A stretch of 64,000 nt of DNA from Winogradskyella sp. (GCF_028289625.1 NZ_JANQOM010000053.1:2023-66022), one strand, 5' to 3'. Counted from the first letter of the stretch, positions 1 through 20,036 are shown. Numbers and translations are program-made. The notes: generated from the sequence alone by a model not told the origin.

Positions 1-19
1 AACAAAATAAAAAGCCAGC

Positions 20-187
20 AGGTAACAACGGCTATAATTCATTGCGGTTGAATTCCTAATCAAAATTCAACGCTTTTTTGCTAAATTTATGGTTACGGCA
101 GAATGATACTCGCGTACCATTCCGTAACGACACGAGAGACTGAAGGTCTCGAACTGACGGAGTAAACCATAGCCAAAACCGTTAGGT
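20..187 (+). repeat. attC-like site 0 (family A)
   Basis: Left box AGGTAAC (20-26), L'' GGCTATAA, L' CCATAGCC, spacer AAAACC, right box GTTAGGT (181-187). Internal stem TTACGG..AATG/CATT..CCGTAA. Confidence 0.75.
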
Positions 188-206
188 GCAATACTTAGAA
201 TCAGCC

Positions 207-812
207 ATGAGAATTCGAATCCTTCTATTATTATTTCTTTCAATTCTAAGTTGTAATCAACCTAAAAATAAGAAATCAGAAACTGTAGAGAAACCAGAGC
301 CTGAAGTTATTATTGAGAAAAAAGTAGAATTCGAATATAACTCACTTTATATATCAGACTCTTTTGATTTTCCTGTTGGTAAGCCAGATGCCAGTGGATA
401 TTACAATGCCCAAAAGTTCGGCGAAAACTTGCATTTAGGTGATGACTGGAATGCTATAACTGGAGGAAATTCGGACTTAGGTGATCCTATTTACTCAATT
501 GCAAATGGATATGTCAAATATGCTCAAGACTATGGTGGTGGATGGGGAAATGTCATAAGAGTTATTCATAAAATGCCGAATGGAAAAATGGTAGAATCTC
601 TTTATGCGCATTGCGATACAATATTAGTTAAAGAAAAGCAATGGATTACAAAAGGAATGAAAATAGGAACGATTGGAAATGTAGATGGACAATATTTTGC
701 GCATTTACATTTTGAAATTCGAGATGATTTGGATTTACCTATAGGTTATGGGTATTCTGATAATACCAAAGGATATTTGGATCCAACAGAATTTATAAAA
801 GAAAACAGATAA
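207..812 (+). CDS. M23/LytM-family metallopeptidase, lipoprotein
   Basis: ORF 186..812 trimmed to the first ATG, because the GTG at 186 lies inside the attC right box. Signal LSILSC. HxxxD (HLGDD) and HxH (HLHFE) motifs of M23 peptidases. Confidence 0.85.
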   Translation: MRIRILLLLFLSILSCNQPKNKKSETVEKPEPEVIIEKKVEFEYNSLYISDSFDFPVGKPDASGYYNAQKFGENLHLGDDWNAITGGNSDLGDPIYSIANGYVKYAQDYGGGWGNVIRVIHKMPNGKMVESLYAHCDTILVKEKQWITKGMKIGTIGNVDGQYFAHLHFEIRDDLDLPIGYGYSDNTKGYLDPTEFIKENR

Positions 813-821
813 CCGTACAGC

Positions 822-954
822 ACCTAACAACGTGTATAGTTAATGCAGCTTGCTGGTTAAGCTGAAGAATTTTTCTTACTTTTATTAAAACATGACTTCC
901 ATCGGAATCATCCTGCGGACGATTCCGCACAAACCATACACGAACACGTTGTAA
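822..954 (+). repeat. attC-like site 1 (family A)
   Basis: GCACCTAAC (820-828) is the exact reverse complement of GTTAGGTGC (181-189). L'' GTGTATAG pairs with L' CCATACAC. Right box GTTGTAA (948-954). Confidence 0.85.
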
Positions 955-960
955 ACAGTT

Positions 961-1158
961 ATGGAAAACGTACTAACATTTTTACTTGGAGCTTTGTTGA
1001 TAGCACTTGGAATTATTTGGTACAATTACGAAAGAAAGAAATTCGTTGCTCAAAGAAAAAATGAAGATTATATGCGAATGTCGTTCACGATTGAATTCAT
1101 TTTAGGTGCATTTATCCTTTTTGCAATTGGAATAAGACTAATTTACGACTCATTTTAA
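961..1158 (+). CDS. small membrane protein (2 TM), unknown family
   Basis: 65-aa ORF with two hydrophobic helices. First gene of a two-gene cassette. Confidence 0.5.
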   Translation: MENVLTFLLGALLIALGIIWYNYERKKFVAQRKNEDYMRMSFTIEFILGAFILFAIGIRLIYDSF

Positions 1159-1641
1159 ATGAACGAAAACAAAGATTATTTTAAAATCTCTAAAAATGGA
1201 AGTATTCACACTTTGAGTGACCGAATTCCATTTAACTGGAAAGAACTAATGATTTGGACTTCTGCTTCATTCATTTTCCTGATTTGGTTTCTCGGAATTG
1301 GAATAGGAATTTTTGTAGCAATTTTAACTTTAATCGGATATACATTTTACCGATTTACTTCTTGGATTTACTACACGGAATTAAAAATTGACGAGCAAAC
1401 TGGAAAAATAACCCGACTAAAAAAAATACTCAACCGAACTCAAAAAACGGAATTAATTGCAGATAAATTTGACCCAACCCGATTTGAGTATTCGGAATTG
1501 ACTCGTAGCGGAAAAACAAAATTCTTAATGAATTATAGAACACATAAAAATAATGAATTACTGATTCTAAAGAATAAAGCTGATAAAGAACTTATTATAA
1601 AATACATTGCGGAAAAAATAACTGGTTACAACAATGCATAA
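1159..1641 (+). CDS. membrane protein, unknown family
   Basis: 160-aa ORF that starts immediately after the previous stop. Two adjacent TM helices and a basic C-terminal domain. The attC left box lies in its last codons. Confidence 0.55.
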   Translation: MNENKDYFKISKNGSIHTLSDRIPFNWKELMIWTSASFIFLIWFLGIGIGIFVAILTLIGYTFYRFTSWIYYTELKIDEQTGKITRLKKILNRTQKTELIADKFDPTRFEYSELTRSGKTKFLMNYRTHKNNELLILKNKADKELIIKYIAEKITGYNNA

Positions 1642-1809
1642 CCGCAATTTGCTGCCGCCAGTTCGCTCCGCTCTTGTCGGCAGATTCGCCTACCCTTCGA
1701 CAAGCTCAGCAAAGGCCAAGCGAATCCACTCGGAATTGCTAAAGTCTGGGCTTAACCGAAAAACAGTAACTTAAAATCCGTAACTGACGGTTATACGAGA
1801 CCGTTGTGC
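1626..1809 (+). repeat. attC-like site 2 (family B, 184 bp)
   Basis: TTACAAC (1626-1632) complements GTTGTAA (948-954). Internal stems CTGCCG/CGGCAG and GATTCGC/GCGAATC. L'' CATAACCG pairs with L' CGGTTAT. Right box GTTGTGC (1803-1809). Confidence 0.8.
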
Positions 1810-1834
1810 TTAATTTAACCCAAACAAAAACATA

Positions 1835-2992
1835 ATGAAAAATTATTCAAAAAAAATATTTTTACTTGTTCTATCTCTAACTCTAATCCATTGCTCAAGC
1901 GGCAATGATTCATCGGAAAACCCTCAAAATAATGATGATTATTTTGTTCAAATGTTTTCTGGGATAGTACGCTTTGGCTTTGAAACTATACCAAATGACA
2001 ATTCAATTTACATAAGAACAAATATTGAGACCCTTGTAGCAGAATTCATAAGAATAGATGAATCTGGAAATACTACAACTACTGATATTTCTTCTATCGC
2101 ATTTAATAATAGTGCTTACATAGATGCCATTTTTTATGATTTTAATAACCAAATTAATATTGTAGTACTGGAAGAAGTAAATCCATCCGAATCAAATATT
2201 AAAATGATATCATTAGATTATAATGGTACTTTGATTAATCAACAAACACTTGAAACTAACACTATTTACACAAATCTAAGAATTCATTCAAATGGATTCT
2301 TAGCATATACTGAGATTTCTGATTTGCAGGAACACACTCTAAATTATAAGATATTTAATCAGTCAGGAAATCCTGTAAATACTCAAATAATCGATTTTGG
2401 TGCAGACAATCCTAGAATTGATGATGTCTATTTTGAAAACAATAATGTTTTCGTAATTGGTAAAAATAATTGGATGCAAGGACAAGGTTATACTAACCAG
2501 ATATGCAGAGTTTATAATAGTAATGGAGAGTTAATTAACAGCCATAGTTTTGATTTCATTTATAATAGCAACAACGTATTAAGAGTGTTAAACAATAGAA
2601 TCCATCGTTCATATAATGCTGGACTAGGTACTGAAATGGAAGTTTATGATATTGATGGAGTTTTAATTAACGCTACAACTTTAAATCATTTGCTTAATTT
2701 TAGTTACAATTCTATTGGGCAATTTATGTACGTAGAATATAATAGTACATTAAACAAAAACCTTGATTTTAAAATTTTAGACTCTCAATTAGAATCCGAA
2801 ATCTATTCTAGAAATTTTGGTGCTGATAATAGCACAGGTAATACTGGAACAACTTGGGTATTTTCGATTAAAGAAACCGAAAATTTCTACAAAGTATTTG
2901 GTCAAACTACGGCACCAAAGAATGGTGATTTTGATTTACCAGAAAACTCAAGTAGCTTCGATGATTATCTAGCTCGATTCAATAAAAACTAA
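1835..2992 (+). CDS. hypothetical lipoprotein
   Basis: 385-aa ORF with signal LTLIHCSSG. Asn/Ser/Thr-rich and repeat-like. No family recognised. Confidence 0.6.
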   Translation: MKNYSKKIFLLVLSLTLIHCSSGNDSSENPQNNDDYFVQMFSGIVRFGFETIPNDNSIYIRTNIETLVAEFIRIDESGNTTTTDISSIAFNNSAYIDAIFYDFNNQINIVVLEEVNPSESNIKMISLDYNGTLINQQTLETNTIYTNLRIHSNGFLAYTEISDLQEHTLNYKIFNQSGNPVNTQIIDFGADNPRIDDVYFENNNVFVIGKNNWMQGQGYTNQICRVYNSNGELINSHSFDFIYNSNNVLRVLNNRIHRSYNAGLGTEMEVYDIDGVLINATTLNHLLNFSYNSIGQFMYVEYNSTLNKNLDFKILDSQLESEIYSRNFGADNSTGNTGTTWVFSIKETENFYKVFGQTTAPKNGDFDLPENSSSFDDYLARFNKN

Positions 2993-3110
2993 GCACAACA
3001 ACGTGTATAACTCATTGCAGCTGAATTCCTAATTGAAGTTCATTAACTTTTGGTTACGGCAGAAAATCAGCTATGATTTTCCACAACAAGCCATACACAA
3101 AACTTTGGCT
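2993..3110 (+). repeat. attC-like site 3 (family A, right box degenerate)
   Basis: AAGCACAAC (2991-2999) is the exact reverse complement of GTTGTGCTT (1803-1811). L'' GTGTATAA pairs with L' CCATACAC. Stem GAAAATC/GATTTTC. The right-box position reads TTTGGCT (3104-3110), so the first G is lost. Confidence 0.75.
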
Positions 3111-3160
3111 AACATTTACGCAACCTTTTGAGAAAATCGCATCTTAAAATAAATTAAAGT

Positions 3161-3619
3161 ATGAGAAAATTAATCTTGATTTTATTTTTAGCTACTTCAT
3201 GTGAAATTAAAATGGATAATGATTTCCCTTTGTCAGTATCTAACAATTCGGAAACATCCATTAACGTATATTTTAATACTGACCAAAACTTTCAATATAT
3301 ATATCCTGATTCTACAATCACAAATTTTGAAAATAGAATTAGTGAAAAAATTTTGCCTAGTCAGATAATTGCTGTTTCAGGAGGAAGTTCTCACTGGGAA
3401 AGTATTTTTGAAATTAATGTGCCTAACGATACTTTATCTATGTTTATAATAAATTCTGATACATTAAATTTATACAATTTGGGCGAAATTGGTTCCACAT
3501 ATAATATTTTAAAACGCTATGACTTAAGCTTGAGTAACTTAAAAGATTTAGACTTCATTGTTAGTTACCCACCAACACTAGAAATGGAAAACATTAGACA
3601 ATACCCTGAATTTGAATAA
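3161..3619 (+). CDS. hypothetical lipoprotein
   Basis: 152-aa ORF with signal LFLATSC. No family recognised. Confidence 0.55.
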   Translation: MRKLILILFLATSCEIKMDNDFPLSVSNNSETSINVYFNTDQNFQYIYPDSTITNFENRISEKILPSQIIAVSGGSSHWESIFEINVPNDTLSMFIINSDTLNLYNLGEIGSTYNILKRYDLSLSNLKDLDFIVSYPPTLEMENIRQYPEFE

Positions 3620-3628
3620 AAAACGATT

Positions 3629-3785
3629 TGCCAACAACGTGTATAGCTCATTACGGCTGAAATTCCTAATACCTACGCTAAAGCTTCGGTGTTAGATGCG
3701 GAATTCATTGCAATTTGCTATCTTTCGGTTACGGTGGAAAATTCTAGCAGATTTCCACAACGAACCATACACAAGACCGTTGTGC
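3629..3785 (+). repeat. attC-like site 4 (family A, 157 bp)
   Basis: Left box TGCCAAC (3629-3635) complements TTGGC at 3105-3109. L'' GTGTATAG pairs with L' CCATACAC. Right box GTTGTGC (3779-3785). Confidence 0.8.
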
Positions 3786-3798
3786 AACATTAGTAAAA

Positions 3799-4302
3799 AT
3801 GGAAAAAATAAGAAGGCAACTGACTTTGTTCCTTAATGAACCGAATGGTATTATCGAGAAAATTCGTGCCGAATTTAATCCAAAACAATACAGACTGATA
3901 TCTGCACATGTAACACTCTGTCGCGAAGACGAAATTGAACCGATTGAAAATATTATTTCAAGAATAAAGTCTATTGAATTAGAAAAAACAATCCGAATTG
4001 AATTTGGAAAAGCAGAACGGTTTTCGAACGGAAAAGGCGTTTGTATTTCATCCTTAGACCATAACAATGAATTTAAAGAATTAAGAAAATTAGTTCTAGG
4101 ACAAACCGAATTGGAAAAAGAGCAAGTTCCTCATATAACACTAATGCACCCAAGAAATTCGACTTGTACTAATGACATATTTGAGAGAATTGAAAAATAT
4201 GACTTACCAACTGAATTGAATTTTGGGAAAATTAGTCTAATCGAGCAAAGAAATGGTGGAAAATGGAAGGTATTACAGGAATTTGGAATTGTAAAAAAAT
4301 AA
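3799..4302 (+). CDS. 2H phosphoesterase superfamily protein (LigT/2'-5' RNA ligase-like)
   Basis: 167 aa with two H-x-T-x motifs (HVTL and HITL) at the spacing typical of 2H phosphoesterases. Confidence 0.7.
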   Translation: MEKIRRQLTLFLNEPNGIIEKIRAEFNPKQYRLISAHVTLCREDEIEPIENIISRIKSIELEKTIRIEFGKAERFSNGKGVCISSLDHNNEFKELRKLVLGQTELEKEQVPHITLMHPRNSTCTNDIFERIEKYDLPTELNFGKISLIEQRNGGKWKVLQEFGIVKK

Positions 4303-4306
4303 CGTT

Positions 4307-4463
4307 GCACAACAACGGCTATAGTTCATTGCGGCTGAATTCCTAACACCTACGCTAAAGCTTCGGTGTTCGATGCGGAATTCATTGCAATTTGCTATCT
4401 TACGGTTACGGCGGAAAATCGGCTATGATTTCCCGCAACGAGCCATACACAAAACCGTTGTAA
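4307..4463 (+). repeat. attC-like site 5 (family A, 157 bp)
   Basis: GTTGCACAAC (4304-4313) is the exact reverse complement of GTTGTGCAAC (3779-3788). Near-copy of site 4, with a covarying internal stem (GCGGAAAAT/ATTTCCCGC). Right box GTTGTAA (4457-4463). Confidence 0.85.
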
Positions 4464-4478
4464 GCCATTAGAACGAAC

Positions 4479-4958
4479 ATGACGATAAGAAAACTAAGAG
4501 ATACTGAATCGGACTTTCTAGCAGAAATGTTATATGAAGCGATTTTTATTCCAGAAGGACATGACCCTTTACCAAAAGAAATCCTTAAAGAAAAATCATT
4601 ATCCAAGTACTTTGAAAATTGGGGAAAAGATAAGTTTGACATTGCTTTGGTAGTGGAATCTGACAATGAACTTGTCGGAGCAATATGGGGACGACTTTTC
4701 ACAGGTGAGAGCAAAGGGTTTGGATATGTGGACAACAAAACACCAGAAATCAGTATGGCAGTTCAACATGAATATCGAAATCAAGGAATTGGAACCGAAT
4801 TGATTAATGCAATCGCTTCTGAGTATCAAAGAATCAACGTGGATTATTTGTCGCTTAGTGTAGACAAGGCAAACAAAGCTGCAAATTTGTACAAACGCCA
4901 TGGCTTTGAGATAGTGGCGGAGAATAAAACAGATTGGACCATGAAAAAACAGATATGA
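4479..4958 (+). CDS. GNAT-family N-acetyltransferase
   Basis: 159 aa with acetyl-CoA binding motif Q/RxxGxG (RNQGIGTELI) and a C-terminal YKRHGF. Confidence 0.85.
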   Translation: MTIRKLRDTESDFLAEMLYEAIFIPEGHDPLPKEILKEKSLSKYFENWGKDKFDIALVVESDNELVGAIWGRLFTGESKGFGYVDNKTPEISMAVQHEYRNQGIGTELINAIASEYQRINVDYLSLSVDKANKAANLYKRHGFEIVAENKTDWTMKKQI

Positions 4959-5025
4959 AAAAAATTGACAGAATGATGACCAATATTTGTTCAGAGAACC
5001 AAATAACTAAAGTAGTGATAAGGTA

Positions 5026-5379
5026 ATGAAAGGGCAAATTTTCTTTTACTTAGGTCTCTCCCTTATGGCAATGCACGAAATGGATGCTATCCGTTGCAAA
5101 GAGTGGCGAATATTTCCAGGACTTTCAATGCTTGATGACAAAGTTGGACATATTTTATTTCTCTTTGCTCACATTCCTCTGTTTTACTTTATATTTTGGA
5201 AACTAACCAATAACAAAAATATTGAATCATTTATCTACGGCTTTGACATTTTTATGATTGTGCATTTAGGACTTCATATACTATTTCTAAAACACAAAAA
5301 CAATGAATTTAAGGATTGGATTTCTTGGTCAATAATTGTCGGTGCAGGACTTTGTGGACTAATAGACTTAGTGATATGA
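5026..5379 (+). CDS. membrane protein (4 TM), unknown family
   Basis: 117-aa hydrophobic ORF in the same cassette as the GNAT gene. Confidence 0.5.
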   Translation: MKGQIFFYLGLSLMAMHEMDAIRCKEWRIFPGLSMLDDKVGHILFLFAHIPLFYFIFWKLTNNKNIESFIYGFDIFMIVHLGLHILFLKHKNNEFKDWISWSIIVGAGLCGLIDLVI

Positions 5380-5478
5380 TATTTGTTACATAAAATAAAC
5401 TAACTACTAAAAGAGAATTGAAGTGCCTTGAAATTCAGCACTACTCATATACGATATAGTTGTAACCAACTTGAGAAA

Positions 5479-6264
5479 ATGTCTAAAGCAAAAGAAAAAA
5501 ATATTGGTTTTAAGAATACGCCTGCAAAAGTGAGAGAGATTGTTTTTGCTCTCAGAGATGGCTTACAAAATACAATTAACGATAAACTTATTGGTTTGTA
5601 CTTGTATGGCTCTCTTGCTTATGATTGCTTTAATCCCGAAATAAGCGACATAGACTTCGTTGTAGTTTTGTCTGAATTACTAACCCTTGAAGAAGAGCAA
5701 AGAATATCTCAACTGCATAAGCATTTGGGCTGTGAACCCAAGTATGGAAAACGTCTCGAAGGGACATATATCACGGAAGAACAGGTAAAATCTGATAATT
5801 ACCCGCCTAATTTCCTTTATTACGTAGAAGGTCATGAATTTGTAAAAGCAAAAAACGGACAAAAAGAGCAAGATTTCCCCATGCATCGCCAGCATTTACA
5901 TGAATCAGGCGTAAGGATTATTGGCTATGATACTCAGAAATTGTTTAAACCTGTGCCGTGGGAGGTATTAAAGCATTCCCTCAAGCAGGAAATGCCATTC
6001 ATCAAAGAACAATTCGAAAAACGACCTATATATGCTGTACTTAATTTGTGCCGAGTAGTTCGAGCATATGAAACTCGGAGACTTTCTTCAAAGAAGCAAG
6101 GCGGTGAATGGGGACTTCAATTTTTACCTGTTAAATTTTATGAATTAATCAAAATTGGACTTAACGGATATACAAACAGAATAACGGACGGACAAAAAGA
6201 ATTCTTAATAGAAAACCTTCCACTTTTCTATGAGTATTGTTTTGAAAGGACAGCTAATAGTTGA
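5479..6264 (+). CDS. nucleotidyltransferase, AadA/ANT-like architecture
   Basis: ORF 5428..6264 (TTG) trimmed to the ATG at 5479. Pol-beta NTase motif LYGS...SDIDFVVV. C-terminal helical domain with FKPVPW and LNLCRV...SKK..GEW, resembling the aminoglycoside adenylyltransferase layout (recalled from memory). Confidence 0.7.
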   Translation: MSKAKEKNIGFKNTPAKVREIVFALRDGLQNTINDKLIGLYLYGSLAYDCFNPEISDIDFVVVLSELLTLEEEQRISQLHKHLGCEPKYGKRLEGTYITEEQVKSDNYPPNFLYYVEGHEFVKAKNGQKEQDFPMHRQHLHESGVRIIGYDTQKLFKPVPWEVLKHSLKQEMPFIKEQFEKRPIYAVLNLCRVVRAYETRRLSSKKQGGEWGLQFLPVKFYELIKIGLNGYTNRITDGQKEFLIENLPLFYEYCFERTANS

Positions 6265-6283
6265 AAAGAAATAAAAAAACTGG

Positions 6284-6341
6284 CTACAACAACACCTATA
6301 CGCAATACCCTTCGGGACACTGCGCATAGCCAACATTGTAG
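6284..6341 (+). repeat. attC-like site 6 (minimal, 58 bp)
   Basis: Layout: CTACAAC, spacer AACAC, CTATACGCA, loop with CCC/GGG stem, TGCGCATAG, spacer CCAAC, ATTGTAG. Classic attC size and architecture. The first base of the right box is A, not G. Confidence 0.8.
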
Positions 6342-6367
6342 AGCACATTAAATCAAACCAAGAACCA

Positions 6368-6931
6368 ATGAACAAAACCATAGTTTTATTATTACTCTTG
6401 ACAATCGGATTTTTATCCTGCAAAAACTCTGAAAAAGAAGTTGACAAAATTGAAATTGTTAAACAATACTTTAAGACTCTTGACAATTCTGACTATTCTA
6501 AAATATCTGATTGGTTTGCTGACAGTTTAACTACAATTGAAGGAGAATATAAACAGGCATATTCTAAAAGCGATTATTTGGGATTTTTAAAATGGGATTC
6601 TGTTTTTGACCCTAACTACGAAATACTTGAAATTGGGCAAAATAATGGAATTGTAAAAGCAAAAATTTCAAAGATGGACAAAAGAATCTCTTTTCTTCAC
6701 GAAGAACCGTTTATAATAAATCAGATAATCAAATTCGAGAACGATAAAATAATTAGTGTTGAAACGGAATACATGGGTTTTAATGAAGCGACTTGGGAAA
6801 GGAATAAAAACGGACTTTTGAGCTGGATTGATGAAAACCATGCTGAATTAAACGGATTTATATACGACCAAACTGAATCTGGAGGAATAAAATTCTTAAA
6901 AGCAATTGAACTGTATAAGAATAAAAAATAA
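6368..6931 (+). CDS. hypothetical lipoprotein
   Basis: 187 aa with signal LTIGFLSC. No family recognised with confidence. Confidence 0.55.
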   Translation: MNKTIVLLLLLTIGFLSCKNSEKEVDKIEIVKQYFKTLDNSDYSKISDWFADSLTTIEGEYKQAYSKSDYLGFLKWDSVFDPNYEILEIGQNNGIVKAKISKMDKRISFLHEEPFIINQIIKFENDKIISVETEYMGFNEATWERNKNGLLSWIDENHAELNGFIYDQTESGGIKFLKAIELYKNKK

Positions 6932-6935
6932 CGTG

Positions 6936-6965
6936 CTACAACAACCTCTATAGCTCATTACCACA
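6936..6965 (+). repeat. truncated attC (left half only)
   Basis: CTACAAC (6936-6942) complements TTGTAG (6336-6341). It is followed by an L''-like CTCTATAGCTCATTACC. There is no right half before the next ATG (6977). Confidence 0.55.
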
Positions 6966-6976
6966 CATTTTTCAAA

Positions 6977-7507
6977 ATGACGAAAAAACAACGAAAAATA
7001 TTCTATGCTATAATTTTCATTTTAGGAATTTTATTAATGATTTGGCAAATCAAAATATATCGGAATACTATGATTGACTTATCAATCTTAATCGGAATTA
7101 TTATTATTGTCGGATTGGTAGCTTTTATTGCAGACTATAAAAATTATGAAAAAACATACGGTCACGAAGGAATTGGACTCTACTTTTATTCTGGAATGCA
7201 GTACATAATTGGATTTGGATTTATTGCTTGCTCAATTTTCACACTATCGAATTACTATTTTGCTGAATCGAAAACCAAAACCGAATCTTACGAAATTATT
7301 GACCGAACTTGGATACAAGGCGGAACGAAATACAGGAGGAATAAAAAACAACCAGTATTCACAATAAATTACGAAGGAAAAAATAAAGAACTTGTTTTTA
7401 ATTCCAATTACTATGAAAAAATGGAACTTTATAAAAGTGTTGAATTTGAAACTAGAGAAGGTTTATTTGGATTTAAAATTCTGGAAAATAAAAAACTGAA
7501 TGAATAA
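6977..7507 (+). CDS. membrane protein, unknown family
   Basis: 176 aa with three TM helices and a soluble C-terminal domain. Confidence 0.5.
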   Translation: MTKKQRKIFYAIIFILGILLMIWQIKIYRNTMIDLSILIGIIIIVGLVAFIADYKNYEKTYGHEGIGLYFYSGMQYIIGFGFIACSIFTLSNYYFAESKTKTESYEIIDRTWIQGGTKYRRNKKQPVFTINYEGKNKELVFNSNYYEKMELYKSVEFETREGLFGFKILENKKLNE

Positions 7508-7514
7508 AAACGTT

Positions 7515-7699
7515 GGGTAACAATGTATAACCTCAATTTGCTGCCCCCTGTTCGCTCCGCTCGTGTCGGCGGATTCGACTACCCTTCGACTTCGCTCAGG
7601 GCAGGTCAAGCGAATCCACTCGGAATTGCTAGCATCAGTTCTAAACCAAAAACCAGTAATTTAAAATCCATAACTAACGATTATACGAGATCGTTTTAG
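7515..7699 (+). repeat. attC-like site 8 (family B, 185 bp)
   Basis: Roughly 80% identical by eye to site 2 (1626-1809) over its full length. Right box GTTTTAG (7693-7699). Confidence 0.8.
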
Positions 7700-7767
7700 C
7701 CAATTAAAACTAAACAATTGCAACGTAGATAGAATTCAATCGTCTTTTTTCCAAAATAAATACAATA

Positions 7768-8964: not shown

Positions 8965-8968
8965 CTGG

Positions 8969-9148: not shown

Positions 9149-9162
9149 ATTATTAAACTAAA

Positions 9163-10212: not shown

Positions 10213-10298
10213 GTGTTTTTGTACTTCCTAAAACGTGTTTTAGGTCGATTCTTACCATAGAACAGTGGTTCTTTGTGTAAAATTTAAAAACACTATTT

Positions 10299-11339: not shown

Positions 11340-11400
11340 TCTAACTGTTGCTAATAATGGCTATAATTCAACGTTACCTTTTAACTTTAAAACAAAAACC
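11339..11400 (+). repeat. collapsed attC remnant
   Basis: GTCTAAC (11339-11345), then AATGGCTATAATTCA (L''-like, compare site 9), then TAACTTTA (11382-11389). No GTT right box. Confidence 0.4.
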
Positions 11401-11407
11401 AAATCTG

Positions 11408-12595: not shown

Positions 12596-12600
12596 ACGTC

Positions 12601-12733
12601 ACATAACGCAGTATATAAGCAATAACGGTTTGAGTGCAAACTCGAACCGTTTTTTGTTTAAATTAAGTTATATTGTAACCCGAAAAGTGATCTTATAAAA
12701 ATCTGCTACTGCTCATATGCAAAACCGTTGAGT
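12601..12733 (+). repeat. attC-like site 10
   Basis: Left box ACATAAC (12601-12607). L'' GCAGTATAT pairs with L' ATATGC. Spacer AAAACC. Right box GTTGAGT (12727-12733). Contains a terminator-like hairpin. Confidence 0.55.
12624..12656 (+). terminator. rho-independent terminator-like hairpin inside attC site 10
   Basis: AACGGTTTGAGT, loop GCAA, ACTCGAACCGTT, followed by TTTTT. Confidence 0.6.
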
Positions 12734-12782
12734 GGCATAACAAGACGGAATCGTAGCTCCTAAGTTTACTAAAAAAACTCTT

Positions 12783-13385
12783 TTGTACGAGAATTGTAAA
12801 TACCAATTGTTCAGAACTGCCTTAGAAGAAGGTGCGCCTATTACAGACGAAAATTGGGATACAATAAAACCTCATTTAAAACTTAGGCATTTTAACAAAG
12901 GAGAGGCCATAATTGAACACGGTCAAGTTGAAAACTATCTCTCAGTAGTAGCAAAGGGGTGCGTAAGATTTTTTGTTCATAAAGATGGTAATGAAATAAA
13001 TTTTGAGTTTTCGTTTGAAGGTGAGTTTTCTACTTCCTATGCCTCTTTCTTATCCAGACGTCCTTCGTTTGTGTTGATGGAAGCTGTTGAAGACGTAACC
13101 TTGATCAGTATACACTATGATAATTTACAAACTTTATACAAGGATTCTGCTACCGGAGAAAAAATTGGGCGGCTAACTACAGAAGGCTACTATATATGGC
13201 GGGAACATCGTGAAATTCAATTGCTCACACTTTCTGCAGAAGAACTATATATTGACTTACTTAATCAATATCCCGAATACATCAACCGTATCCCACAAAA
13301 GTATTTGGCTTCATATCTTCAGGTACAACCTGAGTCACTAAGTAGAATAAAACGACGAATTTATAGTAATAAAAAACGAAAATAA
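12783..13385 (+). CDS. Crp/Fnr-family transcriptional regulator (cNMP-binding domain)
   Basis: 200 aa with a cNMP-binding-like beta-roll and a C-terminal HTH (ASYLQVQPESLSRIKRR). The only available start is TTG. Confidence 0.7.
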   Translation: MYENCKYQLFRTALEEGAPITDENWDTIKPHLKLRHFNKGEAIIEHGQVENYLSVVAKGCVRFFVHKDGNEINFEFSFEGEFSTSYASFLSRRPSFVLMEAVEDVTLISIHYDNLQTLYKDSATGEKIGRLTTEGYYIWREHREIQLLTLSAEELYIDLLNQYPEYINRIPQKYLASYLQVQPESLSRIKRRIYSNKKRK

Positions 13386-13449
13386 CCCAGGTTATTTTTA
13401 GTCAAGTTTCCTCTACGGAACTTTGTAATGAAATTCAAAAATTGAAATT

Positions 13450-14172
13450 ATGAAAGTTCACAAGAGGTTTTTAATGACAATTATTGCCTTAAGTATCTTT
13501 ACTTTATCTAATGCTCAAGAGATGGCTACCACGTTTAATAAGCATAATAACTTCTATATAAGTTTTGGGGCAGGCACTTCTGTACTGAGGGATCTTCCAT
13601 CGGATATTTATTTTGACGGAAGTACCAACCTACAGTTGGGATTTATGTACGAACGTGCATTTCACAAACGATTTTCTTTTCTTACTGGTATTGAGTTTGA
13701 ACAGGCAACTTATAATTTTAACGGAGACCTTGATTTTAACTCGAATAATGGTTTTGATCTAGTCAGAGCTGGACCAGACAAGAAATATACAGGGTTTAGG
13801 CAACGCAATCTCACGGCCCCAATTCAAGGAAGGTTCTATTTTATGGATAACAATGCTTCCGATTCGCGCAATATATTTATTCAGGCTGGATTAAGATTAA
13901 CCCAGTCTCTGGACTTCATTGGTAATGATAGTTTTGAAACTTATTATTTTTATCGCAGTAGAGGAAAAGATGAGTCAATCATGTTAACAGATTTTGTCAA
14001 TCAAAGGCGCATACAATTAGAATTCATGTTTGGATTTAAAGGACAGTTTTTTAAAAAGTTTGATGTATTAAATGCCTCAACTTTAGGCTTTATGTATCAA
14101 TTGAATCCGATTTTTACAAGTGATTCAACAGCAGTACATCCAATACATTTCACATGGCGATTTTTGTTTTAA
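13450..14172 (+). CDS. outer-membrane beta-barrel protein
   Basis: 240 aa with a signal peptide (LSNAQ), alternating amphipathic strands and a C-terminal aromatic residue (RFLF). Confidence 0.6.
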   Translation: MKVHKRFLMTIIALSIFTLSNAQEMATTFNKHNNFYISFGAGTSVLRDLPSDIYFDGSTNLQLGFMYERAFHKRFSFLTGIEFEQATYNFNGDLDFNSNNGFDLVRAGPDKKYTGFRQRNLTAPIQGRFYFMDNNASDSRNIFIQAGLRLTQSLDFIGNDSFETYYFYRSRGKDESIMLTDFVNQRRIQLEFMFGFKGQFFKKFDVLNASTLGFMYQLNPIFTSDSTAVHPIHFTWRFLF

Positions 14173-14194
14173 CAACAAATTGAACGTAAGAGAT

Positions 14195-14836
14195 ATGGAC
14201 AGAAGAACTAAGGAAAATAATGACTCTACCTGGTTAAATACCTTAAAACAGCATTTTCCATGGAAAGCATTTTTTGTTGGAGCACTTTTACCTATTATCG
14301 TATATTACATTTTTCACCTATATGGCCAGCCCTTAACTGGTGCTTTTATAGCTGCCGCATGGGGAGGTGTTGTTGTTCTCATATCACATTTTATTCTGCG
14401 AGATGTTAATCTTTTCGCCATATTATCCTTACCACTTACACTTATAGAAATTATAGGAACTCTAATAACATTGAGCCCAGACTTTTATTTAGCAACATCG
14501 GCAATAGATCATTTTCTTTGGGCTGTTGTATTTTTAATATCGTTAGCATTTTCTCGTCCATTGATACTAGTTTTTGCCGACGCAATGAAAAGTATTCCGA
14601 ATACTACCGAAATTCTTGAATTTCGTAAAACAAAAGCATTCAGAAATGCTTGGGTTAAGCTAACCTATATCTGGGCCGCTGCACATTTAGTGTCTGCTAT
14701 TGTATTGATTATTTCTCAACTTTATACGTCAGTCGAATTCTTTTTAATTATTAGAACCTTATTAAACTTGCCCTTATTAGCTGTTTTAATAACTATAAGT
14801 TTTTGGTTTCCGGAATGGTATTGGGAAAAATCTTGA
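14195..14836 (+). CDS. integral membrane protein, unknown family
   Basis: ORF 14120..14836 trimmed to the ATG at 14195 to remove overlap with the previous CDS. About 6 TM helices. Confidence 0.55.
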   Translation: MDRRTKENNDSTWLNTLKQHFPWKAFFVGALLPIIVYYIFHLYGQPLTGAFIAAAWGGVVVLISHFILRDVNLFAILSLPLTLIEIIGTLITLSPDFYLATSAIDHFLWAVVFLISLAFSRPLILVFADAMKSIPNTTEILEFRKTKAFRNAWVKLTYIWAAAHLVSAIVLIISQLYTSVEFFLIIRTLLNLPLLAVLITISFWFPEWYWEKS

Positions 14837-14863
14837 ATAAATCAACTAAAAAAATATTTAAAT

Positions 14864-15877
14864 ATGAAAACCGTTAAAATACTAATCACCGTCCTTATTG
14901 TTAGTTTGACAAGTAGCTGCATGCATAAAAGCAATACCAGCATGGATGATGTTCTTAACTCTAAACTTTTGGTCTATCAGATTTCTGGTTTTGATGGGCC
15001 CAAAGTGAATATCAATAACGATAGTCTTGCACAGTTCCTCACGTCTTTGTACTACAACGTTCCACTTACTGATATTGAAACAGCATTACAATGGGATTCA
15101 GAAACAACATTGAATAATATCGATGTGCTCATCGAAAACAAGTTACTTTCAAAAAGAGGTGATTATTATCAACCAACTCTTGGAATATTGACTCTAGAGC
15201 GAGGACAACTATTGAAAGAAGAGGCTCAAAAAGTAGCCAACATTATTGCAGACAGTATTATAAAGAGCTTACCTAAAATTCAAAAGATACACGACCAAAC
15301 CAATATTTCCAATTACCATGATTTTAAAGAATTATCTTTCTTTTATCTCAGTAATGTTCTTCTTGATAATTTTCAAATTCAGGCCATGGAAGAAGGTTTT
15401 TTAAATAAGCCGCGACCTATGAGAAATGGGAGTAGATATTATATCGCTATTGTTGAAGACTATACAGACAACAAAACAGAGCCCTATGGTATCTATGGAA
15501 ACCAAGGTCTTTTTTGGAACGATTCCATTGGCATTTCTGTTTATGGCAATAAAAGAGTTAAGTCTAATGTAGGCTGGGATAATTATGAGGATAAGGAGGT
15601 TTATGTTTTTGATAAAGATGATACGCCTTTGGTTACAGAGAAAATGCCAACAGCTTTTTTACCAACTTTACTTGATCTACTTAATGACAACAAATCAAAT
15701 TTTGAATCCACTTATCAAAAACTGAATTTTGACAAAGAAGTTACCTTCGAGGAATTTTTTATTTTTTACTATCACTTTGTATATACTGTAGCTACCGATA
15801 TTCTTATTGAAAAAGACATTATAATTAAGCCTCAAAACAGTTTGTTTTATTATCAAATTGCACATAAGGTTCAATAA
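14864..15877 (+). CDS. hypothetical lipoprotein
   Basis: 337 aa with signal LTSSC. No family recognised. Confidence 0.55.
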   Translation: MKTVKILITVLIVSLTSSCMHKSNTSMDDVLNSKLLVYQISGFDGPKVNINNDSLAQFLTSLYYNVPLTDIETALQWDSETTLNNIDVLIENKLLSKRGDYYQPTLGILTLERGQLLKEEAQKVANIIADSIIKSLPKIQKIHDQTNISNYHDFKELSFFYLSNVLLDNFQIQAMEEGFLNKPRPMRNGSRYYIAIVEDYTDNKTEPYGIYGNQGLFWNDSIGISVYGNKRVKSNVGWDNYEDKEVYVFDKDDTPLVTEKMPTAFLPTLLDLLNDNKSNFESTYQKLNFDKEVTFEEFFIFYYHFVYTVATDILIEKDIIIKPQNSLFYYQIAHKVQ

Positions 15878-15926
15878 TTAGTTTATTGTTGCTTAAAATT
15901 AAAAATCTAAAAAGAGTTAAAATGCC

Positions 15927-16127
15927 AAACAACTAGAATGACTATAGTTAATTAAGGCTAACTCCGATAGGGTATTCAACGCTTATTTACTATCTTTAAG
16001 CTACAGCAGGAAAGAATCCTCTCACCTTTGCTAAAGCTTCGGTGAGCGTAGACGGATTTTTCTGCAACGACATGAAACGTCTTTAGTGTCGTACTGACGA
16101 AGTAAATCATAGCCGAAACCGTTAGAA
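15927..16127 (+). repeat. attC-like site 11 (family A variant, 201 bp)
   Basis: GCCAAACAAC (15924-15933) matches the reverse complement of GTTGAGTGGC (12727-12736) at 8/10. L'' GACTATAG pairs with L' TCATAGCC. Its right end is near-identical to site 0 (ACTGACG.AGTAAA.CATAGCC.AAACCGTTAG). Right box GTTAGAA (16121-16127). Confidence 0.75.
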
Positions 16128-16147
16128 AGTTTAATAATAACAAAACT

Positions 16148-16312
16148 ATGGGTAACGCAAACGATCCTACTGATCACGAATATGGAATCAGTAATGAACA
16201 AAGAGCTAGAAGGGAAAGCTCAAAGAAATCGGATAATAATCCTTGGCCAGGAATTGGTGGAGCAATTATTTTACTTTTAATCATATTTGCACTGTTAAAA
16301 GGATGTTCTTGA
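16148..16312 (+). CDS. small tail-anchored membrane protein (54 aa; below ORF-track cutoff)
   Basis: Hand translation: MGNANDPTDHEYGISNEQRARRESSKKSDNNPWPGIGGAIILLLIIFALLKGCS. It is the only ORF in a cassette-sized unit between two attC-like sites. Confidence 0.35.
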   Translation: MGNANDPTDHEYGISNEQRARRESSKKSDNNPWPGIGGAIILLLIIFALLKGCS

Positions 16313-16330
16313 ATTTAAAACAAAGAAATT

Positions 16331-16467
16331 CCCTAACAATTCTTCAGCGTGAATTCAAAAGTTAAAAACCTCCCACTCAAAAATCGCTTCAACAATCCCG
16401 TTGCCGGTATTACTCAAATGAATTAACTTTGGGCTACAGATGAAAATCATCATCGAGAACGTTGTAC
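16331..16467 (+). repeat. attC-like site 12
   Basis: Left box CCCTAAC (16331-16337), a partial complement of GTTAGAA. Internal TTG-N20-TAACTTTG (16401-16431). Right box GTTGTAC (16461-16467). Confidence 0.65.
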
Positions 16468-16479
16468 TTAATTTGAGAA

Positions 16480-17094
16480 ATGATGAGTAAAAAATCAATC
16501 TTGATTTCCGTCCTTATAATCGCAATTGGACTCACACTCTGGAATTTTGGATTCTTCAATCGATATAATTACTTGACTGCTAAAGCAGACATTGCAAAAA
16601 ATAACCCTCAAATAGTTTATGTTGGTGAATCAATATTAACACCAGCAGATTTAAATAAAGTAAGTAAAAAGTATGGCTTTGAAATCGTTGGTCTAGGTTG
16701 CACACTGAGTGGAGTTGAGCAAAATGGAATTGATATTTACAATTCCCAGATTAACAACTATCTGGACAAGCTAAACGGAAACGGATGGAAATCTGAATAC
16801 ACAAAAGAGATTGATTCTTTGATGAAGCTAACTAACATTCCAAAAACTGCATTTTGGATTGAAAAAAATGGAAATGGACATTGGTACAATGTAGATTTTA
16901 TGCATAGCCATAAAAACAATGCGAGAATTTCGATTTTTGACAAATTTGGTGAGCTAATAACCAAAGGGCATTTTATTCTAATTTGTCCTAGTGATGAAAT
17001 TGAATTTATGGGCGAATTAGATACTCAAATCGACTTTTATGATGGTGAAAAAATTCAACTTAAAAGTAATTGTTATTTGATGAAAAGAAAATAA
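16480..17094 (+). CDS. hypothetical protein with N-terminal TM anchor
   Basis: 204-aa ORF. No family recognised. Confidence 0.5.
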   Translation: MMSKKSILISVLIIAIGLTLWNFGFFNRYNYLTAKADIAKNNPQIVYVGESILTPADLNKVSKKYGFEIVGLGCTLSGVEQNGIDIYNSQINNYLDKLNGNGWKSEYTKEIDSLMKLTNIPKTAFWIEKNGNGHWYNVDFMHSHKNNARISIFDKFGELITKGHFILICPSDEIEFMGELDTQIDFYDGEKIQLKSNCYLMKRK

Positions 17095-17102
17095 ACTGCT
17101 TA

Positions 17103-17201
17103 AAACAACAGTAAAATCACTTTACCACTCCACATTGCTCAAATCACTCAAATTCATTAACTTTAAGTTACGGAGGAAAATCGTAGCCGAGACTGTTAGG
17201 C
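17103..17201 (+). repeat. attC-like site 13
   Basis: TTAAAACAAC (17100-17109) approximates the reverse complement of GTTGTACTTAA (16461-16471). A 40-nt core (17127-17166) is identical to 18567-18606. Right box GTTAGGC (17195-17201). Confidence 0.7.
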
Positions 17202-17899
17202 ACAAGTTGAAATCAAATACATTGAATAAAAGATTAATAAGCATTCTAAAAGCCGTTTTGGCAACTCTATTGTATATAGTTGGAATGGAGCTTATTGGTT
17301 CTTGGCTTTATATCGCAGAAGCCATTGAATTCAAAAATTATAATAGTTACTATAATTTAATACAAGGTATATTACAATTTATAGGAGTTCTAATTTTTAT
17401 ATACTTCATTAAAAACAGGACATTTAAAAGTTTGATTAAGAAAACGGATAGAAAATGGTATTTACTTGCACTTATATTGGGTGTTTCATTTGCTTTTATA
17501 CAAACACCATTAAAGTGGGTTTACAACTTATTGTTTGGGACTGAATATTACATTGCTTATAGATTTGATGGATTACCAAAATTCAAGAATATAAATATGA
17601 TTTCAGGCGTACTTCTGATTCCTATTGCCGAAGAACTTTTTTTCAGAGAGTATATCCAAAATAAATTACAGAAAAAAACCAACATAATAGTTGCTATTTT
17701 AACAGCGTCTATATTGTTTGCTTCAATTCACTCACCTTATCTTAATTTAATATTTGATTCGGTAAAACAAGATTGGCATTGGTTTTATTTGACAATATTT
17801 GGTGGCATACTCTCAGGACTCTTATATTACAAATCCAATTCAATTGGGCCACCTATTATCTTTCACATGTTTTGGAATATAATGGTATATATTGTCTGA
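17135..17899 (+). CDS. CPBP-family intramembrane glutamic endopeptidase (CAAX protease/bacteriocin-immunity type); true start uncertain
   Basis: Motifs EELFFREY, FASIHS and HMFWN. The first ~22 codons of the tracked ORF are attC site 13 sequence. The real start is probably downstream, for example an in-frame TTG around 17207-17225. Confidence 0.75.
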   Translation: MLKSLKFINFKLRRKIVAETVRHKLKSNTLNKRLISILKAVLATLLYIVGMELIGSWLYIAEAIEFKNYNSYYNLIQGILQFIGVLIFIYFIKNRTFKSLIKKTDRKWYLLALILGVSFAFIQTPLKWVYNLLFGTEYYIAYRFDGLPKFKNINMISGVLLIPIAEELFFREYIQNKLQKKTNIIVAILTASILFASIHSPYLNLIFDSVKQDWHWFYLTIFGGILSGLLYYKSNSIGPPIIFHMFWNIMVYIV

Positions 17900-17916
17900 T
17901 ATGTATAAAAGCCAGT

Positions 17917-18017
17917 GCCTAAAAATACCTATAACCCCTTCCCTAACCATATTGCTCGTGTCAGTCTAATTAACTAACTTTAGGCTATAGCGGAAAACCT
18001 TAGCCAAGAAGTTAGCA
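17917..18017 (+). repeat. attC-like site 14
   Basis: AGTGCCTAAA (17914-17923) matches the reverse complement of GTTAGGCACA (17195-17204) at 8/10. Internal TAACTTTA-GGCTATAGCGGAAAAC module. Right box GTTAGCA (18011-18017). Confidence 0.65.
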
Positions 18018-18032
18018 TGTAAGCTCGAATAA

Positions 18033-18437
18033 ATGAACGAAGTCGAAATCAAAGTATATCACAAAGAAGAGAAAGTAACAACTACACTTTATGTTGAGCA
18101 ATTGTCTGAAAATAAATTTCGGATGATAGATAACGACTTTTGCAACTATAAACTAACTTTGGGTACGGAGTTCGAAACAAGAATAAACAAAGACGGTAAA
18201 CACGAGATAACAAAAATTACGAAGGAATCGGAATACATTACTCGCAGATTCGGATTGACACCAAATCATAAAGAATCTGATTATAGAATGCTTGGAGAGG
18301 AATTGACCCTAAGAGGTGGATTTTGGCAAGTTGATATAGGGAGAATTGCTACTATTAGCATTCCAAAAGATTTTGAGTTTGATATTGACGAAGTAATCAA
18401 AGAGTTGGGCCTAAAGTTGGTGGAAATAATTGATTAA
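18033..18437 (+). CDS. hypothetical cytoplasmic protein
   Basis: 134-aa ORF with no TM helix or signal peptide. No family recognised. Confidence 0.5.
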   Translation: MNEVEIKVYHKEEKVTTTLYVEQLSENKFRMIDNDFCNYKLTLGTEFETRINKDGKHEITKITKESEYITRRFGLTPNHKESDYRMLGEELTLRGGFWQVDIGRIATISIPKDFEFDIDEVIKELGLKLVEIID

Positions 18438-18439
18438 AA

Positions 18440-18672
18440 TGCAATCAAAATCTATTGAACAGCTTGAAAATGATTATTGGAAAGAAGAAATTTGACCAAA
18501 TAAATGAAAAAATAAAACCTATTGTGCGGCAATAGCTATCGCTCTTTATTTGTAAGTTACTTCCCGACTCCACATTGCTCAAATCACTCAAATTCATTAA
18601 CTTTAAATTACGTCGGAAAATGACTCGTGTCCTTTGCTGCGACAAAACCACATACAAACCCTAATGTTTAAT
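18440..18672 (+). repeat. degenerate attC-like site 15
   Basis: Contains a 40-nt core (18567-18606) identical to site 13. L'-like CCACATACAAACC. No clean GTTRRRY box (CTAATGTTTAAT). Confidence 0.4.
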
Positions 18673-18679
18673 TTAAGAC

Positions 18680-18802
18680 ATGAGAATATCATTACTTGGG
18701 GCAACAGTAAGAACCGGTAAACTAGTACTGAAACGAGCACTCGAAAAAGGCTATCAAGTGAATTGTCTTGCTCGTAAAATTGAGCGGATTAAAAAAAAGT
18801 AG
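18680..18802 (+). pseudogene. N-terminal fragment of an NAD(P)-binding (NmrA/SDR-like) protein
   Basis: 40-codon ORF MRISLLGATVRTGKLVLKRALEKGYQVNCLARKIERIKKK. It matches the beta-alpha-beta GxxGxxG start of NAD(P)H-binding proteins (GATVRTG) and then stops. Confidence 0.4.
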
Positions 18803-18814
18803 TGATATCAAAAG

Positions 18815-19011
18815 CATAAACACTAATAAAACTACTAGCAAAACCGTCCAAGTCGCATTGCATTAAGTCGCTAAGACATGGAAAAATTCTCACATAAATT
18901 TACTATCTTTAACACATAGAAAATCGAGCAATCAGCTTGTGTCTTCCTTTAAGAAATCCAGCCTACCTCGCGGCTATTTTTCCATTGTAGAACAGACACA
19001 ATCCATTAGCA
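18815..19011 (+). repeat. degenerate attC-like site 16
   Basis: Left part CATAAACACTAATAAAACTACTAG resembles the left end of site 11. Internal TTTACTATCTTTAA module is shared with site 11. The right-box position reads ATTAGCA (19005-19011). Confidence 0.35.
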
Positions 19012-19029
19012 TACATTAAAAATTGATTT

Positions 19030-19905
19030 ATGAAAAAAGAAATAAGCCTTTTAGTCTTTAGCATCCTAATATTGACCTTTTCATGTTCATCTGATGATGA
19101 CTCGAACGATGGTGGAGATACAATAAATCCCATAAAATTAATTCAAAGCCTCTCTTTTGATGATGAAACAAACGTTGATAGCCTGTTCTATGACAACAAC
19201 AATAGATTGATCTTAAAGAAAGAATATCTAGACGTCGGACAATTGGACTATGACACACACTATGAATACGATTCTGCCAATAATTTGATAAGAACATATA
19301 GAATCCATTCTACTTCTGTTACACCAAGTGGAGAAGTGAATTATACTTATGATACAAATGGTAATTTATTATCTCGGGTTTACTCCACGTTTGGGTCAAC
19401 CCAAGAATACCTCTTTGAATATGAAGCTAATGTTATTATCGTTAATAGAAATCAGGAAGATGAAGTTAGAATCAACTTATCATCTGGCAATAGAATACAA
19501 TCTGTGGAAAGAAAAAATGCCAGTAATCAATTTTTCGTATACAAAGAATACATCTATGATGGTAACAACATCACAGAAGTGAGAATAAATGAAGGCTCGG
19601 AAGTTATTTCTTTTGTTTTCGAATTTGATAACAACAACTTTCCTTTCTCGGTTTTTGATTTCGACTTGCCAAATGGCCTAAGTATAAAAAGAATTGAGGA
19701 GGCTATTCTGTTTTCCAATTATCCTTTTATTACAATTGGAGATGGCGATAATTATTTTGGGTTTTTAAACGAAAATAATGTTATTTCTTGCTCTGGCAGT
19801 GGTTCTAGTAACTACAGTTATAGTTACGATTCTGAAGGTTATCCTGTGCAAATCACCTATGATTTTTTGTTTATCCCTAGCAGCCTAATTGTAACATATT
19901 ATTAA
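19030..19905 (+). CDS. hypothetical lipoprotein
   Basis: 291 aa with signal LTFSCSSDDD. Repeated YD-like beta motifs. No firm family. Confidence 0.55.
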   Translation: MKKEISLLVFSILILTFSCSSDDDSNDGGDTINPIKLIQSLSFDDETNVDSLFYDNNNRLILKKEYLDVGQLDYDTHYEYDSANNLIRTYRIHSTSVTPSGEVNYTYDTNGNLLSRVYSTFGSTQEYLFEYEANVIIVNRNQEDEVRINLSSGNRIQSVERKNASNQFFVYKEYIYDGNNITEVRINEGSEVISFVFEFDNNNFPFSVFDFDLPNGLSIKRIEEAILFSNYPFITIGDGDNYFGFLNENNVISCSGSGSSNYSYSYDSEGYPVQITYDFLFIPSSLIVTYY

Positions 19906-19920
19906 AATAATTTTTATTGA

Positions 19921-20036
19921 TCATAGTTATAGTAGCCTCTCTATAATGCTTAGCTGATATCACTAAAATTAATTAACTTGAAACTGTAAGTAAAGACCTT
20001 TAACAAGGTAAAAATCGTATGTGCTAAGTGTTATTT
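19921..20036 (+). repeat. degenerate attC-like site 17
   Basis: CATAGTTATAGTAGCC (L''-like). Module ATCACTAAAATTAATTAACTTGAAACTGTAAG resembles the cores of sites 13 and 15. Weak right box GTTATTT (20030-20036). Confidence 0.3.

Follow-up and report, generated by a model that had tools for sequence, protein, structure and literature searches.

Integron surveys recognise a complete integron by an integrase that carries an additional domain, which is held to be both defining and necessary in integron integrases (PMC9668308, PMC2426708). By that measure, next to nothing is on record from the Bacteroidetes: earlier reports were only of integrases standing alone, to which one complete integron, in Salinibacter, is added (PMC9024848). 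Reviews count Bacteroidota among the phyla with integrons without giving detail, none of the published taxon-specific attC models is for Bacteroidetes, and no work on Flavobacteriaceae integrons was found in the full-text literature searched, which omits most subscription journals. The stretch of 64,000 nucleotides analysed here (hereafter the window; NZ_JANQOM010000053.1, 2023-66022) holds a gene-cassette array on the + strand of positions 1-20036. In all likelihood, this is an integron-like chromosomal array with attC-type sites, one of a kind whose relatives start beside an Xer-like recombinase without the additional domain. The window probably contains the distal part of it, at least 20 kb, and the host is probably a marine member of the Flavobacteriaceae, Winogradskyella or a close relative.

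The substantial open reading frames (ORFs) of the array all lie on the + strand; a first-pass annotation made from the sequence had said this of every ORF, and the minus-strand ORFs that do exist in the first 20 kb are of 111 aa at most and nearly all overlapped by + strand ones. After each gene or gene group comes an imperfect palindrome of 58-201 nt, with a start of the form ...AAC and an end of the form GTT.... The array runs off the left edge of the window and stops, on the right, at the last relic site; the genes of the right flank are ordinary chromosomal ones (agmatine deiminase, pheT, ftsK and two tRNAs). All eleven GTTRRRY boxes of the first-pass annotation (at 181, 948, 1803, 3779, 4457, 7693, 12727, 16121, 16461, 17195 and 18011) were found where it had placed them, and the pairs that it listed between left boxes and preceding right boxes are as it gave them. 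Its count of '12 clear' attC-like sites has to be amended: 11 are well supported, and three further ones are degenerate.

What characterizes these elements is the way their ends correspond. Over 12 links in the window, the 7 variable nt that follow GTT were compared with the reverse complement of the 7 nt that precede the AAC of the next element: 64 of 84 positions matched, against 30.2 ± 5.5 for shuffled partners, with a shuffled maximum of 57 and not one of 200,000 shuffles reaching 64. When the two ends of the same element were paired, the score was 26/84 only. The left box thus tracks the right box of the preceding element rather than its own, as had been claimed at first pass, and the complementarity holds against the shuffled pairings proposed there as a control. 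The signal is found inside the 7-bp box (39/48) and also in the 3 bases beyond it (25/36). The same rule governs 167 cassette links in other genomes, from the blocks described below (5.99/7, compared with 2.66 ± 0.11 after shuffling of the partners and 2.50 when the ends of one site are paired). Such a boundary rule is the mark of units that used to be circular, with the closure between G and TT in the right box. On these points the initial proposal (an integron-type cassette array in a Flavobacteriia chromosome, with attC-like sites, a G|TT crossover and no integrase in the window) is borne out; there is no tyrosine recombinase anywhere in the 64-kb window, and Rfam gave no match within the array.

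The sites share a structure as well. A covariance model specific to this family was built from 69 bottom-strand sites of other species, one per locus and none from the window. In the window it found 11 sites (E-values from 5e-19 to 0.025), all in one orientation, and no site at 20-64 kb; 10 of the 11 end exactly as they had been defined independently, the exception being the site at the left edge (23-145 instead of 20-187). A regular-expression scan for AAC...GTT with an inner stem lacked both sensitivity and specificity and was dropped. The consensus fold consists of an outer helix formed by the AAC and GTT boxes, an asymmetric internal loop (about 5 nt versus 2) and an inner stem of 14 pairs. 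The 69-sequence alignment has 19 pairs, with 96.2% of cells paired and both sides changed in 10 of the 19; its covariation score is 0.268, versus 0.103 for shuffles (0/500) and 0.02-0.07 with slid partners. The stem is kept by compensatory changes. Two conserved A·C mismatches of the top strand are G·T wobbles on the bottom strand, which is more stable for that reason: 190 of 204 sites fold more stably on it, with a mean difference of 2.7 kcal/mol (p 3e-33). Since PMC2727003 and PMC3458562 give the folded bottom strand of attC as the substrate in classical integrons, this bias agrees with classical integron biology. In the folding check suggested at first pass, the bottom strand was favoured in nine of the 12 window sites folded, with one tie and two reversals; the distal sites a13, a14 and a15 folded no better than shuffles (z -0.45, 0.05 and 0.15). 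Sites a5 and a6 have long identical stretches of interior sequence. In sedentary chromosomal integrons, sites are homogenised within a genome, and the likeness of a5 and a6 fits this.

The same site family occurs in other genomes. An exact-pattern scan for the left arm in species-representative genomes, the window's own genome not being among them, gave at least 119 array blocks, almost all from marine Flavobacteriaceae (Winogradskyella, Psychroserpens, Polaribacter, Tenacibaculum, Lacinutrix, Mesonia and others). Profile searches of these blocks yielded about 320 left arms and about 250 right arms; among the matches listed, the arms are confined to one strand in 119/119 blocks, and paired arms make up the 204 sites mentioned above (median 132 nt, 164 of them at 130-140 nt). 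The pattern was also seen outside the Flavobacteriaceae: six arms in Moheibacter (Weeksellaceae; L006) form a real array, and a Balneola genome (L044) and a Cytophagales metagenome-assembled genome (L055) have one left arm each, which may be due to chance or to transfer.

Four cassettes of the window have relatives at the nucleotide level in other genera, each among different neighbours. The LigT cassette is 87.5% identical to a cassette of Winogradskyella sp. R77965, and the high identity runs from the preceding right box, GTTGTGCAAC, into the left arm of the cassette's own site, the site interiors being different. Cassettes of this kind move between hosts. Exact-protein matches to the cassette 1 protein and to the right-flank deiminase were obtained only in short SRR20820731 contigs identical to the window. 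The proteins flanking the array in the window had no match in the array blocks, and a common insertion locus was not found.

A tyrosine recombinase is present in 10 of the at least 119 blocks and is, in nine of these ten, directly upstream of the array and co-oriented with the cassettes. This layout is seen in 14 related loci (L071, L084, L090, L067, L075, L040, L114, L070, L082, L128, L126, L202, L204 and L205), where the array starts with a GTTRRRY site 30-94 nt past the recombinase stop codon. L128 is a TARA ocean contig, L202 is from Leeuwenhoekiella blandensis MED217, L204 is from Winogradskyella sp. PC D3.3, and L205 and L206 are short assemblies; L206 has the same recombinase-plus-site start, on a contig that ends before any attC. 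The locus L126, on a GC-richer metagenome contig, obeys the same boundary rule, with a recombinase of only 37% identity and sites from a separate sequence family. The 10-nt box that follows the recombinase gene was tested in 10 loci; in 9 of them it matches the first cassette's left box in reverse complement (0-1 mismatch), as insertion at an attI site would produce. The expectation at first pass that intI and attI lie to the left of position 1 fits these loci as to position: a recombinase and an attI-like site do stand at the upstream end. It differs from them in two respects, since the recombinase is not of the IntI type and points in the same direction as the cassettes, not away from them.

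The region next to the recombinase gene also contains a conserved motif, TATATTTG...ATATAAC-NN-GTT; TATATTTG was seen 10-40 nt after the recombinase stop codon in L071, L202, L204, L205, L206, L084 and L090. The -7 promoter element of Bacteroidetes is TAnnTTTG, and the presence of TATATTTG next to the crossover fits it. Going by the motif, TATATTTG could serve as a promoter for the cassettes or be bound by the recombinase; in L071, the one locus checked by eye, there is no -33 TTG element at the usual spacing. In Winogradskyella, the recombinase gene follows gcvT-rmlD-pterin dehydratase-yebC in two independent assemblies. This fixed neighbourhood implies that the platform is chromosomal and sedentary.

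Several side observations concern these platforms. At about 20340-20370 of L126, a second copy of the recombinase-adjacent site (TATAAGTTAGTTAGGCGTAAG) lies within the array, 9 kb from the recombinase, and the left box of the next cassette matches it. In Ichthyenterobacterium magnum (L014, 4520-5353), a 278-aa recombinase devoid of both the N-terminal and the additional domain is oriented divergently to an array with sites of this family, at a distance of about 1.1 kb, which makes a second platform layout. In L202 (CH672395.1, 11291-17231), the first cassette after the recombinase codes for an AcrVA2-like protein; the next unit, with genes for an HTH (helix-turn-helix) protein, two DNA methylases and an HNH nuclease, has the look of a restriction-modification module that a site arm closes, and IS (insertion sequence) transposases come after it. 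Many homologues of the recombinase are on contigs of 1.3-5 kb that end just past the gene, which fits assembly breaks at repeated sites; short-read assemblies and metagenome-assembled genomes therefore probably under-represent such arrays. The large genes beside recombinase-less arrays, for an RHS/MORN protein and a penicillin amidase, are unrelated.

As to the kind of recombinase found beside the related arrays, Pfam recognises Phage_int_SAM_4 and Phage_integrase domains, with the first 100 or so residues unmatched. The catalytic-core motifs (RxxE, KGxKDR, LRHSFATH, LLGH, and IYTHV with the tyrosine) align with those of IntI1, and the C-terminal SPLD motif is common to both. The match to TIGR02249, the NCBI model for integron integrases, is broken into two pieces, with 179-214 bits for a cutoff of 265, and the same proteins score 203-230 bits with XerA_Arch and 172-199 bits with XerC/XerD. 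Compared by sequence, the recombinase scored 140 bits with archaeal XerA, 131 with VchIntIA and 97 with XerD. The alignment to archaeal XerA is continuous; that to VchIntIA, the solved Vibrio integrase (2a3v), is split, with residues 285-307 of the recombinase (23 aa) opposite residues 179-244 of the integrase (66 aa). In an alignment to IntI1, about 41 IntI1 residues, including the ALER region, have no counterpart. Judged by the TIGR02249 match and these two split or gapped alignments, the IntI-specific additional domain is absent from the recombinase of the related loci. The closest 120 homologues are 48-99% identical, and all those with a named organism are from Flavobacteriaceae; in the sources they bear generic names ('tyrosine-type recombinase/integrase', 'site-specific tyrosine recombinase/integron integrase', 'XerD').

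At its N-terminus, the recombinase carries an extra domain, about 75-100 aa long. An AlphaFold model (predicted local distance difference test, pLDDT, 82) shows a confident β-β-α-β-β-α-β domain at residues 1-75, and the best fold matches of the model are XerA (E 6e-19) and VchIntIA (E 2e-16). A single-sequence model of the N-terminal domain alone was poor (pLDDT 59), and a fold search with it gave no significant match. Matches of the N-terminal fold to an integron cassette protein (E 0.03) and to the N-terminal domain of XPB (E 0.5-0.8) are non-significant and were not used. We note as a mere lead on how hairpin mismatches could be read that the non-significant fold matches of this region (P0001, 1-75) include XPB damage-recognition and MutS mismatch-binding regions (E 0.5-5).

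The mechanism that we propose would run as follows. The Xer-like recombinase would insert cassettes, as circles, at the site that adjoins its gene, and the same recombinase would excise them by attC × attC recombination on the folded bottom strand, in the manner of classical integrons; it would recognise the attC hairpin without the additional domain, possibly, as a speculation, through its N-terminal domain. The array is thus envisaged as probably run by a non-canonical integrase. We lean slightly towards the wider view that marine Flavobacteriaceae, together with the distant carriers of the 37%-identical recombinase, run a full integron system, with an insertion site, attC sites folded as single strands and long arrays of cassettes, whose integrase has an N-terminal domain in place of the additional one, either as an ancestral form or as a parallel invention.

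Several facts weigh against this picture. The recombinase of the window's own array is unseen, since the array runs off the left edge. A classical integron integrase located elsewhere in these genomes may act in trans. At least three distal sites are decayed. Two of the related arrays (L023 and L024) begin beside unrelated genes, without a recombinase, and the array of the window could likewise be an orphan.

This last possibility is the alternative that survives best, although we regard it as rather unlikely: the array would be a cluster of attC sites without integrase (CALIN), split off from its enzyme or never attached to one, and by now largely immobile. It is suggested not only by L023 and L024 but also by the lack of any recombinase over 64 kb and by the truncated sites, fused cassettes and decayed distal sites of the array. 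Against it, the array continues past the left edge of the window, the edge at which its best-preserved sites stand. Moreover, clusters without integrase can still be mobilised in trans, so that the question it raises is one of status and not of kind.

That the array belongs to an ordinary integron, with a classical integrase bearing the additional domain upstream or elsewhere and the Xer-like recombinase as a bystander, is improbable. The G|TT crossover and the classical arrangement of boxes at the sites are those of such an integron, its integrase could lie in the upstream flank, which is beyond the left edge, and integrase-only elements ('In0') have been reported in Bacteroidetes by IntegronFinder surveys (PMC9024848). 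However, tblastn searches with IntI1 and the new recombinases over the at least 119 blocks returned only recombinases without the additional domain. Against it also count the position of these recombinases, 30-94 nt from a site bearing the junction of the first cassette in 9 of 10 loci, and the recurrence of that arrangement in L126, with its 37%-identical recombinase and its own site family. Finally, there is next to no chance that the palindromes are dispersed repeats (of the repetitive extragenic palindrome or miniature inverted-repeat transposable element type, REP/MITE) or transcription terminators rather than recombination sites: they are intergenic, hairpin-forming and repeated as such elements would be, but two things refute that reading, a boundary rule that follows from no model of terminators or MITEs and the orientation data, the scatter envisaged at first pass being contradicted by sites that are array-only and in one orientation in the window and on one strand in every listed block, while cassette-sized homology between genera stops at the boxes.

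Taking the integron-like array as the preferred reading, its units, all on the + strand, can be described one by one. The attC-like site a1 (20-187) closes a cassette whose gene is to the left of the window; its left box ends at 26, its right box GTTAGGT starts at 181, and the covariance model returned 23-145 (E 6e-8). Cassette 1 (182-948) codes for an M23 peptidase (207-812; this and the following family assignments are from Pfam) and ends with site a2 (822-954; model E 2e-13, bottom-strand fold z -4.8); a copy 79% identical is found in Jejuia spongiicola (L101). Cassette 2 (949-1803) has two small membrane ORFs (961-1158 and 1159-1641) and the 184-nt site a3 (1626-1809; E 3e-7), and a copy 77% identical is present in Mangrovimonas (L076). 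Cassette 3 (1804-3104) contains a 385-aa ORF (1835-2992) and site a4 (2993-3110; E 9e-15), whose right box at 3104 is degenerate (TTTGGCT) and whose link to the following left box is 5/7. Cassette 4 (3105-3779) has a 152-aa ORF (3161-3619) and site a5 (3629-3785; E 5e-19); both this ORF and that of cassette 3 have a lipoprotein-like N-terminus when their translations are read by eye. Cassette 5 (3780-4457) is the LigT cassette, with a LigT/2H phosphoesterase (3799-4302) and site a6 (4307-4463; E 2e-15).

Cassette 6 (4458-6335) has three genes, for a GNAT acetyltransferase (4479-4958), a DUF6713 protein (5026-5379) and an AadA-like nucleotidyltransferase (5476-6264, AadA_C plus NTP_transf_2); judging from these families, the acetyltransferase and the nucleotidyltransferase could be an aminoglycoside-modifying pair. 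Its site a7 (6284-6341) is unusually short, with 58 nt, and has the degenerate right box ATTGTAG at 6335 (fold z -4.0, model E 0.008). Positions 6336-7693 correspond to two fused cassettes, with a 187-aa ORF (6368-6931), a relic of the left half of a site at about 6936-6965, a 176-aa membrane ORF (6977-7507) and site a9 (7515-7699; E 3e-6). The composite unit that follows, from 7694 to 12727, starts with an esterase with TPR repeats (7768-8964) and site a10 (8969-9148; E 2.5e-4), the right end of which is degenerate. It goes on with an AraC regulator (9163-10212), a DUF4932 protein (10299-11339), a left-arm relic (about 11350-11375), a second DUF4932 protein (11408-12595) and site a11 (12601-12733; E 1.3e-10). 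In the segment 8969-12733, the AraC gene and the paralogous pair of DUF4932 genes give the impression of cassettes that became fused as their sites decayed, possibly with a duplication. The two degenerate right boxes, the two relics that retain only a left half and the altered end of the 8969-9148 site, all of them additions to the first-pass annotation, account for the presence of several genes in some 'cassettes'.

The next cassette (12728-16121) has four genes, for a Crp-like protein (12783-13385), a 240-aa ORF, a DUF3159-like ORF and a 337-aa ORF, and a site a12 (15927-16127) that is 201 nt long (E 0.025, link 5/7). Three distal cassettes occupy 16122-18011, namely a 54-aa ORF with a13 (16331-16467), a 204-aa ORF with a14 (17100-17201) and a CAAX protease with a15 (17917-18017). 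The GTT and AAC boxes of these three sites are recognisable (links 4, 3 and 6 of 7), with AAC changed to AAA in the left box of a15, and the covariance model matched none of them. The tail (18012-20036) is decayed: it comprises a 134-aa ORF (18033-18437) that is 82% identical to one in Aquimarina (L119), a site remnant at about 18520-18660, an ORF fragment and an RHS-repeat ORF (19030-19905) with a lipoprotein-like N-terminus, and the last relic site has GTTATTT at 20030. The site remnants of the tail have interior sequence in common with a14 and a15. The segment 18660-19030 is non-coding, save for a short truncated ORF (about 18681-18800) after the decayed site, and probably represents the remains of a lost cassette. 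The three distal sites and the relics beyond 18.4 kb therefore indicate decay at the far end of the array, an end that is probably frozen. Many of the cassette proteins have no family match.

For the window alone, the outcome is that 20 kb of sequence which would otherwise be puzzling are now soundly annotated. The wider consequences depend on the recombinase being the integrase. If it is, a large pool of mobile cassettes in abundant ocean bacteria has been overlooked, the need for the additional domain in single-strand attC recombination becomes directly testable, and there is a living comparison for how integron integrases arose from Xer-like recombinases. A full system without the additional domain would, if real, be invisible to the tools that define integrons by that domain.

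How, then, does this array compare with the known systems? It resembles Vibrio-type sedentary chromosomal integrons (IntIA, with attC sites like the Vibrio cholerae repeats, VCR) in its long one-directional succession of genes and attC sites, in the RYYYAAC...GTTRRRY layout and the G|TT junction, in the similarity of sites within a genome, in the bottom-strand folding bias, in the insertion site beside the recombinase gene, and in typical cassette contents (an acetyltransferase, a nucleotidyltransferase and many unknowns). It differs in that the recombinase of the related loci has an extra N-terminal domain instead of the IntI additional domain and is co-oriented with the cassettes, and also in the length of the flavobacterial sites (median 132 nt, up to 201) with their two conserved G·T wobbles on the bottom strand. 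By the additional domain, which is one defining test of the integron family, the recombinases fail, a finding that concerns the related loci only; in the way it works, the array is like a sedentary chromosomal integron. The 'reverse-orientation' integrons of Spirochaetota (Treponema type) likewise have an integrase gene co-oriented with the cassettes (PMC9668308); their integrases, however, keep the additional domain and count as IntI, unlike the flavobacterial ones. Within the window, many attC-like sites and no integrase recall the CALIN category of IntegronFinder, with the difference that this array is cut by the window edge. Lastly, the recombinase resembles archaeal XerA no less closely than it does IntI, which brings it near the Xer proteins (XerA, XerC, XerD). 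Yet the sites are hairpin-forming, of 58-201 nt and with integron-type junctions, in contrast with the duplex sites of about 28 bp in Xer-dif and pdif systems; unlike dif/pdif modules, they keep a single orientation with no alternation, and the recombinase that accompanies them has the SPLD motif of IntI1.

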